Of a DNA stretch of 64,000 nucleotides, positions 3,001 to 27,000 are shown piece by piece (position 1 is the first letter of the stretch; each line of letters begins with the position of its first letter). The DNA lies in NCBI RefSeq assembly GCF_054482525.1, contig NZ_CM137006.1, one strand, 5' to 3'. The position numbers are program-made.

Positions 3001-6000
3001 ATACCGATTACGTGAGTAATGAATCAGGGACGCTTTCGCGATTATTTAAACTACCTCAGCATGGGACCACCGTCCGCACAGAATTGATTGCGGGGATGAC
3101 CACTTTTTTAACCATGGTGTACATCGTTTTTGTGAATCCGCAAATCCTCGGCGCGGCACAAATGGACCCGAAAGTGGTGTTTGTTACCACCTGTTTGATT
3201 GCCGGTATCGGCAGTATTGCGATGGGGATATTTGCTAACTTACCCGTGGCGCTGGCTCCGGCAATGGGGCTGAACGCCTTCTTTGCGTTCGTGGTCGTGG
3301 GGGCGATGGGTATCTCCTGGCAGACCGGGATGGGCGCGATATTCTGGGGCGCAATTGGGCTATTTTTGCTCACGCTATTTCGTATCCGGTACTGGATGAT
3401 CTCCAACATTCCATTAAGTTTACGTATTGGTATCACCAGCGGAATCGGATTATTTATCGCCTTAATGGGATTAAAAAATACTGGCGTTATTGTCGCCAAT
3501 AAAGACACCCTGGTGATGATTGGCGATTTAAGTTCTCACGGCGTGTTGTTAGGTATTTTAGGGTTTTTTATTATAACCGTGTTGTCATCACGTCATTTTC
3601 ATGCCGCGGTGCTTGTTTCTATTGTGGTGACGTCTTGCTGTGGCTTATTTTTCGGTGATGTTCATTTTAGCGGCATCTATTCCATTCCGCCTGATATTAG
3701 CGGCGTCATTGGTGAAGTAGATTTGAGCGGCGCGTTAACACTTGAACTCGCCGGTATCATTTTCTCCTTTATGCTGATCAACCTATTTGATTCATCAGGA
3801 ACATTAATTGGTGTAACTGATAAAGCTGGCTTAATAGATAGTAACGGTAAATTCCCCAATATGAATAAGGCGCTGTATGTTGATAGCGTCAGTTCGGTGG
3901 CGGGTGCGTTTATCGGCACCTCGTCTGTTACCGCCTATATTGAAAGTACTTCTGGTGTGGTGGTCGCACGGGGCTGACGGCTGTCGTGGTCGGCGTTATG
4001 TTCCTGTTAGTTATGTTCTTCTCACCGCTGGTGGCGATGGTTCCTCCTTACGCAACCGCCGGAGCGTTAATCTTTGTTGGCGTGCTGATGACTTCGAGCC
4101 TGGCGCGCGTTAACTGGGATGATTTTACCGAATCGGTGCCCGCATTTATTACCACGGTGATGATGCCCTTTACTTTCTCGATCACCGAAGGGATTGCACT
4201 CGGCTTTATGTCGTACTGCATCATGAAAGTGTGCACCGGGCGCTGGCGCGATCTGAACCTGTGTGTGGTGGTGGTCGCAGCTCTGTTTGCACTGAAGATT
4301 ATTCTGGTGGATTAGTAACTGGCGAGGGTTTCCAGATATCATGAGTTCTGATTACGCAGGAGAACTCATGATCTGGATAATGCTCGCCACGCTGGCGGTA
4401 GTGTTTGTGGTTGGTTTTCGGGTGCTGACATCCGGGGCCAGAAAAGCGATTCGCCGTCTCAGCGATCGGCTGAATATCGATGTCGTACCCGTGGAGTCGA
4501 TGGTCGATCAAATGGGAAAGTCAGCCGGTGACGAATTTTTACGTTATTTGCATCGCCCGGATGAGTCGCACCTGCAAAATGCCGCGCAGGTATTGCTCAT
4601 CTGGCAAATTGTCATTGTCGATGGTAGCGAACAGAACCTGCTGCAATGGCATCGGATTTTACAAAAAGCCCGCCTTGCCGCTCCCATTACCGATGCTCAG
4701 GTCAGGCTGGCGCTGGGTTTTCTGCGCGAAACCGAACCTGAAATGCAGGATATTAATGCTTTTCAGATGCGCTATAACGCGTTCTTTCAGCCTGCCGAGG
4801 GCGTTCACTGGCTGCATTAAAACCGCTTCGTCTTATCAGCCTACAGACCGCGCCTGACCTGTAGGGTGGATAAGGCGTTCACGCCGCATCCGGTATCGGA
4901 ACTGACAGTAGGTGAACGCATTATCTACGTTCTATTTACAGCAGCACCTCCAGCCCGTGTTTTTGCACAATGCTGAGCAGTTTTAATGAAATGCCATTGG
5001 GGCGTTTAGCGCCACTTTCCCATTTTTGTACAGTTGAAACGCTGGTATTGAGATAGTGAGCGAAGACGGGCTGACTCACTTTTAATTTTTCCCGCAGTGC
5101 TTTTATCTCAACAGGTTGTAAGTCTTGCACGCTGGTCAGGCAGGCTTTGTCAAAAGTACGCATCGTTTCGGCAGAAATAGCATCGACGCTGGACAATCCA
5201 GCCGCTGCGCTGTGAATAGCCTCAAATGCAGGACTTTTAAATTTAGTTTTTGCAGTCATAGCAGATCTCTGTCAGTTCTTTAGTGTTAATCATTGCTGTT
5301 AGTTGGGCTTTCGTCAGGAAGCCATAATGCTTTGCAATTTCACGAAACCCAGCCAGTTCCTGACTATTGATGTTCGACATATCCTGTTTTGCATATAAAA
5401 ACGTGTAAAACCAATTACTTCCCCCTTTCGCCAGAATAATTGCACGCTCACGATTTTGGTGAAGGCGCTTTTTAAAAACGCCACCGCCAAGTGCATCAGC
5501 TTTACCTTGTTCCGTTTCTAAAATGGCCCGGCACAACTCTTCATCTGTTATTGCATGAGACCTGGCTTCACTTGCAAACCATTTGGTTTTAAACACGCGC
5601 ATATCGTTGAGATCCTGTTATTAAAGTATATCACCAAGTGCAATACTTTATCCCTTGTTCCCAACACAATCGCGAAAATACATATCACCTTGCCCTATGA
5701 TTTTTATTTCTTCGAGCAGCCTCGAACTTTTCCCACAACACCGTAAAAGTTGCAAAAACGTTAAATGCGTCACACATTTCAATGTTAAAGTGGTCGGCTT
5801 TTCCCCTGAAACATGCCACGGGTAACACCATGAGTGAATTTATTGCCGAAAACCGCGGCGCGGATGCCATCACCCGACCGAACTGGTCAGCCGTTTTCTC
5901 GGTGGCGTTTTGCGTCGCCTGTCTGATTATCGTTGAGTTTTTGCCCGTCAGTTTGTTGACGCCAATGGCCCAGGATTTAGGCATTTCGGAAGGGGTTGCC

Positions 6001-24000: not shown

Positions 24001-27000
24001 TGACAGCGTGAGTGTTTTTTCAGCCGCATTTTTTTGCGTCAGTACTTTATTATATTGCGGATCGCCAGGTTGCAGTTGCGACAGCTCTTGATTCAATGTA
24101 TTGACTTTTTTCTCCAGCGATTGCACCTTTTTATCGACCGTATTGTAATTATTATTGGCCTGATGCATGATGTCGTCGGCTTTTTGCGCGGAATCTAATG
24201 ACGAGGAGTAAGCGTCACTTAATTCACGAAACTTATTATGTGCCATTTCGTGTCGAAGCAGGGTGCTGTCAAGGTTATTATGCAAACGTGTTGTAATATC
24301 CTGATCGGCAATGCCTGTTAGATTACCCAAAATCATCGTCAGGCGGGCATCGTTCGTCTTTGCTGTAGTGGCGTTGTCGGAATCTGAAACCTGCATTTCA
24401 GGCGGAGCAAGCATAGGTTTGTTTTCAAGACGAGCGCGAATATCGTTATCAAGGGACTTCGGGTTTTTATTAAGCCGCATGGGATCAACTTGCGTTTTGT
24501 TGCTGTCCTGCAGTCTTTTTTCCGCATCGCTATACTGTGTGCGCAATGTTTCGCTGATTTGTTCAAACGTGATCGTTTGTCCCGTAATCGGTGCCGACAT
24601 AATTCACCTCCTTTTTAAGCTATCATCGGGTGTAATTAATTCTTTTTTATTTAACTCATGGCAGATGTTTATTCCCATCTAAAATGGCATCAACGGGAAA
24701 GTAAGTAATGTGTTTATTGTTATTCTTCTCATTTATTTTATCGCCATGGTTATTTTTTAAATCAACCGGGGCTTCCTCATGATATTTCCTGATTAACTCT
24801 TCAGGCGTAAAAGAAGACTTTTTTCCGTTTATGTTCATTTTGCCGACTCACTCTGTTTGAACTTCTTCTTCGGTATTGGCTGTCAAGAGTTCAAGATAAG
24901 CAGTAGCCATCTCTTTAACTTTTTCATTTTGGCTGTAGGTTACGACTGTATTAAATAACTCCGTGGCCATTTTAGTGTTTTTTAAGCCCATCTGGCATTG
25001 GCCCATATAATAAACTAAAGAGAAATCGTTATCGGGAGATAGCATTAAACAGATATGATACATGTCGAATGCCTTTTGATAATCTTTCTTCAACTGACAG
25101 ACGGCGGCATATCCTTTTAAATAGTTATAATTTTGGAAATCATAAATACAGAGAAATTTAAAAAAGAGCTCAGCTTCGTCAAGTCTTCCTTTTTCATAAA
25201 AGTTATAAGCGTAAGCATAAACGCCTTCAAGGGTATCCGGAGTAATGCCATGCAGCTCTGCAAGTGTTGCTCCCATACCTAATGCACGTTCGAACTTACT
25301 GGCAATTTCTTTATTTTCTTCTAAATCCAGATTTGCGCTTTCCATCTCTACTCTCTCCTTTCGAACATTCTTTGTTCAGACTTCACCATTTTTTAGAGGG
25401 GGGTGATATCAAAATTCGCTCATTTTTATGCCCATCCGTTGGGCTTCCTTTTCTGCATTAAAAACAAGTATTGTTTCAATGAGATAAGATTTTCTATGTG
25501 ATGAAATGAAAACAATGTAGAGGGAAATTTATCCACAATCCTGATGAACGGGTTCAATTTTGATTGGAATTTGAAAAAGCAGGTGATTTACTGATGTGCG
25601 AGCGTACGTCAGCGGCTGCTGGCCTGAGCGCGGAGGTGTGCGAAATTCACATATCCGGGCATTCCACCTTACCCAGCGCTTCCCAGTAGTTATTCTGATT
25701 ATTACGCTCCATCGCCACAATAGCTTCGCGGATATGTTGTTTGTTACTCTCATCAGACAACATTAATTTTTCCCACGCTTCGTCTGATAATGACGCCTGT
25801 GGCGTGCAAATTTTACGTAAATCTTGCAATACCGTGCTCTTTTCTTTTGCCGACTGTAGAGAACTGAATGGCGATTCGGCCTGAGAAATGGCTGGGAAAG
25901 TCAGGAATACGGTAATCATGAGTAGCATCGTTGGCTTCATAGCTGCAACCTTCTGCAAATGTGCATCGAATGAAGCATAAGTGTAGTTTGCTTTTGCCGC
26001 TCTCATCATGCTGTACGAAAGGTGTTTGCGTGGTCAGTAAGAAGTGCCAGTTTTATATACCTTTTTCTTCTATTCGATAGCTTTTCGTTTTTTAAATCGT
26101 AGTGATCTTGCCATTATAGTCAGTTAACGATTAAAAAAAGGATAAAAAAGTGAAACTGACAACACATCATCTACGGGCGGGGGCCGCATTATTACTGGCA
26201 GGAATTCTGCTGGCAGGTTGCGACCAGAGCAGCAGCGATGAAAAGCACATTAAAGTGGCGTTATTAATGGCGCAGAACAAGATGTCGCGGAAGTCGCTAA
26301 AAAGGTGGCAAAAGAGAAATATGGCCTCGATGTTGAACTGGTAGGATTTAGCGGTTCGTTGCTACCGAACGATGCGACAAATCATGGCGAGCTTGATGCG
26401 AACGTCTTCCAGCATCGACCCTTTCTTGAACAAGATAATCAGGCGCATGGTTATAAACTGGTAGCGGTGGGAAATACGTTTGTCTTCCCCATGGCGGGTT
26501 ATTCCAAAAAAATCAAAACAGTGGCGCAAATAAAAGAAGGCGCGACAGTGGCGATCCCCAACGACCCGACCAACCTTGGTCGCGCGCTTTTACTGTTGCA
26601 AAAAGAGAAGCTAATTACTCTGAAAGAGGGAAAAGGGTTACTACCTACCGCGCTGGATATAACCGAGAATCCTCGTCATTTGCAGATTATGGAACTCGAG
26701 GGGGCGCAGCTCCCGCGCGTACTGGATGATCCCAAAGTTGATGTGGCGATTATCAGCACCACTTACATTCAGCAGACCGGGCTTTCTCCGGTGCACGACA
26801 GCGTATTTATTGAAGATAAGAATTCGCCGTATGTGAATATTCTGGTAGCACGGGAAGATAATAAGAATGCAGAAAACGTGAAGGAATTTCTGCAATCTTA
26901 TCAATCATCCGAAGTCGCTAAAGCGGCAGAAACCATCTTTAACGGTGGCGCGGTGCCTGGCTGGTAATTCTCACTCATCCCGCGCCGGACGATTTATTTT

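Follow-up and report, generated by a model that had tools for sequence, protein, structure and literature searches.

Deletions of different type disrupt adeQ and nlpA in a phylogroup-D clone of Escherichia coli

Pseudogenes formed by replication slippage (Streisinger-type misalignment) carry the deletion of one unit of a mononucleotide run or of a short tandem repeat, are inherited clonally and leave a dispensable gene truncated; the single-base deletion rph-1 of E. coli K-12 is presumably a known parallel. Similar traces are left by two other systems. Simple-sequence-repeat contingency loci, as in Neisseria or Haemophilus, change frame by gain or loss of repeat units (phase variation), while long-read sequencing and pyrosequencing are subject to homopolymer errors. 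Here these systems are compared with two disrupted genes, adeQ (yicO), which encodes an adenine permease, and nlpA, which encodes lipoprotein-28, in a stretch of 64,000 nucleotides from RefSeq assembly GCF_054482525.1 (contig NZ_CM137006.1). This whole stretch is called the window below, and positions are window positions unless another sequence is named. It was identified as E. coli chromosome from uhpT to waa in a Megablast comparison with 5,426 complete genomes of the species.

Both genes resemble slippage pseudogenes, with one unit deleted from a mononucleotide run in nlpA and from a tandem short repeat in adeQ. Nothing essential differs, the particulars of adeQ being that its repeat is imperfect (6/7), has two units only and offers a microhomology of 2 bp. 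It is very probable that the two lesions are unrelated, genuine and vertically inherited loss-of-function mutations, different in molecular type and in age, in a phylogroup-D E. coli clone.

The adeQ and nlpA lesions

The adeQ pseudogene lies at 2988..4315 on the plus strand, as placed by the adeQ annotation at the homologous position in strains PCN033, SCU-102 and 19KM1776. It measures 1,328 bp, versus 1,335 bp (444 aa) for the intact gene in those three strains, and is divided into two open reading frames (ORFs) in different frames, 2988(2910)..3977 and 3986..4315. Alignment with the three complete genomes and with three draft genomes demonstrated a single 7-bp gap, the sequence GGCGGTC being missing after 3958 (junction at 3957..3965, plus strand, between 3958 and 3959; the exact position is uncertain by 2 bp, GG). 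The sequence is CTGGTGT-GGCGGTC-GGTGGTCGCAC in the intact allele and CTGGTGT-GGTGGTCGCAC in the window. The lost heptamer is the first unit of an imperfect tandem repeat, GGCGGTC-GGTGGTC, in which six of seven positions are identical; the second unit, GGTGGTC, is kept at 3959-3965. From codon 325 onward the reading frame is lost, so that the ORF beginning at the ATG at 2988 ends in ...SGVVVARG* with a stop codon at 3975-3977, while the remainder of the gene continues in the other frame to 4315. The product of 329 aa is truncated after native residue 324 of 444, and the loss of residues 325-444 (120 aa) of this NCS2-family permease should abolish transport, as judged from sequence.

The nlpA pseudogene (26150..26967, plus strand) measures 818 bp, versus 819 bp for the intact allele of AST215, and contains ORFs at 26150..26344 (64 aa) and 26305..26967 (220 aa). 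Alignment with the AST215 allele established the loss of a single G: the GG at 26257..26258 (plus strand) is what is left of an ancestral GGG run, AAAGT-GGG-CG having become AAAGT-GG-CG (AAAGTGGGCG to AAAGTGGCG). In the window and SCU-102 alike, AAAGTGGGCGTT is replaced by AAAGTGGCGTT. The GGG run spans codons 36 and 37, the frame is shifted from codon 37 and translation stops at 26342-26344, which leaves a stub of 64 aa with the signal peptide, the lipobox and 13 native residues. The gene is annotated as "lipoprotein NlpA, frameshifted" in SCU-102, 19KM1776 and PCN033. As runs of at least 3 nt hold 16.8% of the window's bases, and G/C runs of at least 3 nt hold 5.0%, a single -1 event in a GGG run is unremarkable.

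A sequence-only reading of the window had described both genes as frame-disrupted, near the two ends of 3950-26310, and had attributed both frameshifts to the loss of one G from a short G run. The split ORFs are present in both genes, and the single-G loss is exactly what is found in nlpA, but adeQ has a 7-bp gap with no G run altered; the G4 tract near the gap (CACGGGGCTG) is unchanged. The common signature proposed for the two lesions therefore does not exist, one being a 1-base and the other a 7-base deletion. Nor does any known allele reduce the adeQ lesion to a 1-bp change: among the approximately 5,400 complete genomes matching a 141-bp stretch around the lesion, the best identity was 95.3%, which equals the 7-column gap exactly. 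Because seven bases amount to two codons plus one base, the effect on frame mimics that of a -1 frameshift, which is probably how the lesion came to be misread when no reference sequence was at hand. A -1 shift inferred in that way need not be a 1-bp event.

Two candidate explanations of other kinds were discarded. Programmed ribosomal frameshifting does not fit, as neither junction (CAT TAA AGT GGC in nlpA and GGT GTG GTG GTC in adeQ) contains a slippery heptamer of the form X XXY YYZ and as the orthologues are single-frame in thousands of genomes. Gene conversion from an adeQ paralogue is set aside on logical grounds, since a paralogue that is itself in frame could not be the donor of a gap of 7 bp.

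One further observation concerns adeQ in draft assemblies. Many "partial" AdeQ proteins of 311-334 aa are recorded from draft assemblies of sequence type ST131 and other E. coli, on contigs of approximately 95 kb. Such contigs tend to stop within adeQ near the codon of the deletion, while complete genomes are contiguous there; the stretch is rich in G, and the contig ends may reflect difficulties there with the assembly graph or with coverage.

Recurrence of both alleles and accuracy of the sequence

Both alleles recur in independent data. Contigs with the 64-aa NlpA product specific to the frameshift number 235 (330 index blocks; sources NCBI, Logan and ENA), and the GG allele is also present in eight draft or metagenome loci (L008-L011, L013 and L020-L022). 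The exact 61-mer containing the nlpA deletion (26227-26287) occurs in 3 of the 5,426 complete genomes, which are PCN033, SCU-102 and 19KM1776. The exact truncated 329-aa AdeQ product was found on 31 contigs from the same three sources (47 index blocks), and the adeQ deletion was present in both of the other carriers examined: Logan assemblies of SRR5936505 and SRR29421599, two runs with accession numbers far apart, have the identical DNA junction. Contigs from these runs lack two SNPs (single-nucleotide polymorphisms) private to the window, 244T and 4580T, and hence represent genomes different from that of the window but of the same sub-lineage. The haplotypes of the carriers are almost the same, differing by 0-8 SNPs over 6-28 kb. 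This recurrence in independent assemblies means that both lesions are reproducible, heritable alleles; they are genuine inherited mutations and not sequencing errors.

Comparison with relatives likewise demonstrates that other insertions or deletions (indels) are absent from the window. Against SCU-102, the full 64,000 bp differ by seven substitutions and the one 7-bp gap. Against 19KM1776 (53 kb compared), the extra indels are only on the 19KM1776 side, namely a lost C at 22089 and an island at tRNA-Sec. Only SNPs and the 7-bp gap separate the window from PCN033 outside the adhesin repeat zone, and three draft genomes (L020-L022) show no further indel over 28 kb. No private single-base indel was thus found in the window relative to four to six independent assemblies. 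Homopolymers of at least 5 nt number 307 in the window (94 of at least 6 nt, 24 of 7-8 nt), and none of the 307 differs in length from its counterpart in SCU-102. Five SNPs are private to the window, all of them transitions. Three are synonymous (in uhpT, yicN and iatC); the others change recG codon 337 to Leu (39788; Phe in relatives) and rph codon 157 to Arg (49381; Gly in relatives).

The sequence-only reading had raised the possibility that, in this assembly, errors of sequencing or polishing at homopolymers account for both frameshifts. That explanation now appears highly improbable, although the nlpA change is a change in homopolymer length and, taken alone, looks like such an error (GGG to GG), and although none of the approximately 5,400 complete RefSeq E. 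coli genomes with a match to the 141-bp stretch carries the adeQ deletion. There are four reasons. First, the adeQ lesion is a 7-bp deletion that involves no homopolymer change. Second, both alleles are reproducible: they turn up in numerous independent assemblies, which differ in laboratory, host and year of origin. Third, GGG is too short for a usual error site: an error-prone assembly would fail first at long runs, and the 24 runs of 7-8 nt and all those of at least 5 nt agree with SCU-102. Fourth, no other indels accompany the two lesions, the number of private 1-bp indels in 64 kb relative to SCU-102 being zero. The artefact explanation thus fails by the condition that the sequence-only reading had itself named for its refutation. 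The window sequence can be trusted at homopolymers, and both nlpA and adeQ should be annotated as genuine pseudogenes.

One of the loci carrying the nlpA allele, L013 (a metagenome scaffold, ENA ERZ28599401), is unusual in that approximately 100 bp upstream of nlpA, homologous to 26050-26150, are strongly divergent. There are 28 differences in this stretch, among them a difference of 12 bases in length and a start codon ATG in place of GTG, and the scaffold nevertheless keeps the single-G deletion. This divergence is due either to recombination of the promoter or to a chimeric metagenome assembly.

Order, mechanism and consequences of the deletions

The nearest complete genomes to the window are those of SCU-102 (human, USA), 19KM1776 (dog, Switzerland) and PCN033 (pig). 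PCN033 is a porcine extraintestinal pathogen of ST597, O11 and phylogroup D (PMC9828833), and the window's genome belongs to a phylogroup-D clone together with these three strains. Across the species the adeQ region is less alike, 5,392 of 5,406 genomes being only 95-99% identical to that of the window.

Slippage, the order of events and neutrality are what we infer for the two alleles. The nlpA deletion is common to every clone member examined (11/11) and is accordingly taken as the older event, which would go back to the clone's ancestor. Only a sub-lineage, to which the window's genome belongs, has the adeQ deletion, which is thus the younger, a later event in our reconstruction. Six genomes with the nlpA deletion have an intact adeQ, the window carries both lesions, and contigs with the adeQ deletion show no other difference from SCU-102 over 5-7 kb. 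Together these observations suggest that the adeQ deletion is nested within the nlpA-deletion clone.

Both deletions correspond exactly to a single unit of a repeat already present in the intact allele, one G of GGG or one heptamer, and this is the footprint to be expected of replication slippage. Slipped-strand mutation, which the sequence-only reading had offered as the alternative to artefact, therefore fits both lesions and is the most likely origin of both, to judge from the repeats at each site. In adeQ, where slippage is a plausible origin, the complementary strand may have been under synthesis when the nascent copy of the second heptamer re-paired with the first, which it matches at 6/7 positions; that the T-containing unit is the one kept fits such a re-pairing.

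The loss of one repeat unit is also the type of change used by repeat-mediated switching, and nlpA and adeQ might on this ground be regarded as phase-variable contingency loci subject to reversible slippage. We consider this barely credible. The tracts (three G residues and two imperfect heptamers) are far below the lengths at which switching is frequent, and no length polymorphism is seen among close relatives: all 11 clone relatives examined have GG and 1,920 other complete genomes match the nlpA 61-mer with one more base (GGG), so that there is no sign of toggling. In adeQ, moreover, the deletion removes the repeat itself, so that no simple reversion could occur.

The decay of the two genes is most simply explained by neutral pseudogenisation, since both have a back-up. 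A second adenine permease, adeP/purP, serves as back-up for adeQ, and metQ, a paralogue of nlpA, as its functional back-up.

Four points weigh against this account of the two genes. The two alleles of the window's genome are confirmed only via relatives that carry identical alleles. That all carriers of the adeQ deletion also have the nlpA deletion is deduced, as short-read contigs break in the adhesin repeats that lie between the two genes; in all three of the adhesin-anchored places with 10-kb flanks among the matches listed (similar places collapsed), adeQ is intact. At the adeQ deletion, if the imperfect repeat (6/7) is left aside, exact microhomology extends over no more than 2 bp (GG). 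Finally, neutrality is assumed.

The alternative to neutrality is adaptive loss, in which selection in this extraintestinal-pathogenic clone favoured inactivation of adeQ, nlpA or both, the adeQ deletion being the mark of a sub-lineage that was successful. Both genes function in transport or the envelope, and the alleles are widely recorded (adeQ on at least 31 contigs from three sources, nlpA on 235), but these contig counts are uncorrected for sampling and fit hitch-hiking in a sampled clone. Recurrent independent inactivation was not seen in the clone, in which no search aimed at recurrence was made, and paralogous back-ups predict relaxed selection. Adaptive loss is accordingly improbable. 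A more specific version, in which the adeQ deletion marks a recently expanding sub-lineage and the loss of adeQ (next to adeD), following that of nlpA, was selected and not neutral, is if anything slightly less probable.

The two genes are most likely ordinary slippage-type pseudogenes. The nlpA case is already annotated by RefSeq, and the one thing new here may be a marker, the 7-bp deletion in adeQ, by which lineages within the clone could be distinguished. Apart from the typing of PCN033, the literature found for SCU-102 and PCN033 was silent on pseudogenes of either gene and on the platforms used for sequencing. No wider biological consequence follows unless the gene losses prove to have been selected.

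The adhesin gene and neighbouring loci

The gene order in the window is uhpT, adeD, adeQ (yicO), yicN, a RelE/helix-turn-helix (HTH) toxin-antitoxin pair, nepI, iatC, eilA and genes for a type III translocon and chaperone, followed by yicS, nlpA, yicL, setC and tRNA-Sec, and onward to the waa cluster. The gene iatC (7216..18333, plus strand) encodes an inverse autotransporter adhesin of the air/eaeX type and is a single intact ORF of 11,118 bp and 3,705 aa, with internal repeats of approximately 291 bp that are approximately 84% alike. The caution that the sequence-only reading had extended to ORFs inside this repeat-rich gene proved unnecessary for the window. The ORF is uninterrupted, no indel was found in it relative to SCU-102, 19KM1776 and the three drafts, and the exact 3,705-aa protein is on record in 41 index blocks; it is acceptable at face value.

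The adhesin locus of PCN033 (L018, 33596-42675 of that sequence) is approximately 2 kb shorter than that of the window and is annotated as two coding sequences (CDSs), iatC of 3,627 bp and one of 5,457 bp labelled "Ig-like domain". The shorter locus points to a repeat collapse or frameshift in an older assembly, or to a real difference in repeat number. It is to the PCN033 adhesin, and not to that of the window, that caution about repeat-rich ORFs applies.

The RelE/ParE toxin and HTH antitoxin pair between yicN and nepI (4936-5602) appears to be variable cargo. At least 80% of the region 3000-7000 is covered in one place by only 1,714 of the 5,406 genomes.

Downstream of the adhesin, 18383-25345 encodes the regulator EilA, an IpaD/SipD-like tip protein, a SipB/SctE-like translocon protein and a SycD/LcrH-like chaperone. 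Together with the adhesin, these make up an island that combines substrates of type III secretion with a regulator, and no genes for a secretion apparatus were found within the 64-kb window. The island resembles the eip/eilA/air locus described for enteroaggregative strain 042. It is in this island that 19KM1776 lacks a C interrupting a T run at 22089: the window reads GTTCTTTTTTTATA and 19KM1776 reads GTTTTTTTTTATA (L016, at approximately 22,190-22,200 of that sequence). The missing base splits a translocon-like gene of 376 aa (21676-22806, minus strand) into two annotated CDSs. This is the kind of homopolymer-associated frameshift that had been feared for the window, but it occurs in a relative, where it is either real or an assembly error.

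A final difference among the relatives lies at tRNA-Sec (approximately 29824-29846), where 19KM1776 carries an island of approximately 11 kb; the window, SCU-102 and PCN033 lack it. The genes of the island encode an integrase, a DEAD-box helicase, a Psu-like polarity suppression protein, ogr/Delta, AlpA, an Icd-like protein and a primase-helicase, and it resembles a P4-like satellite. Only a rhuM fragment remains at this site in the window.

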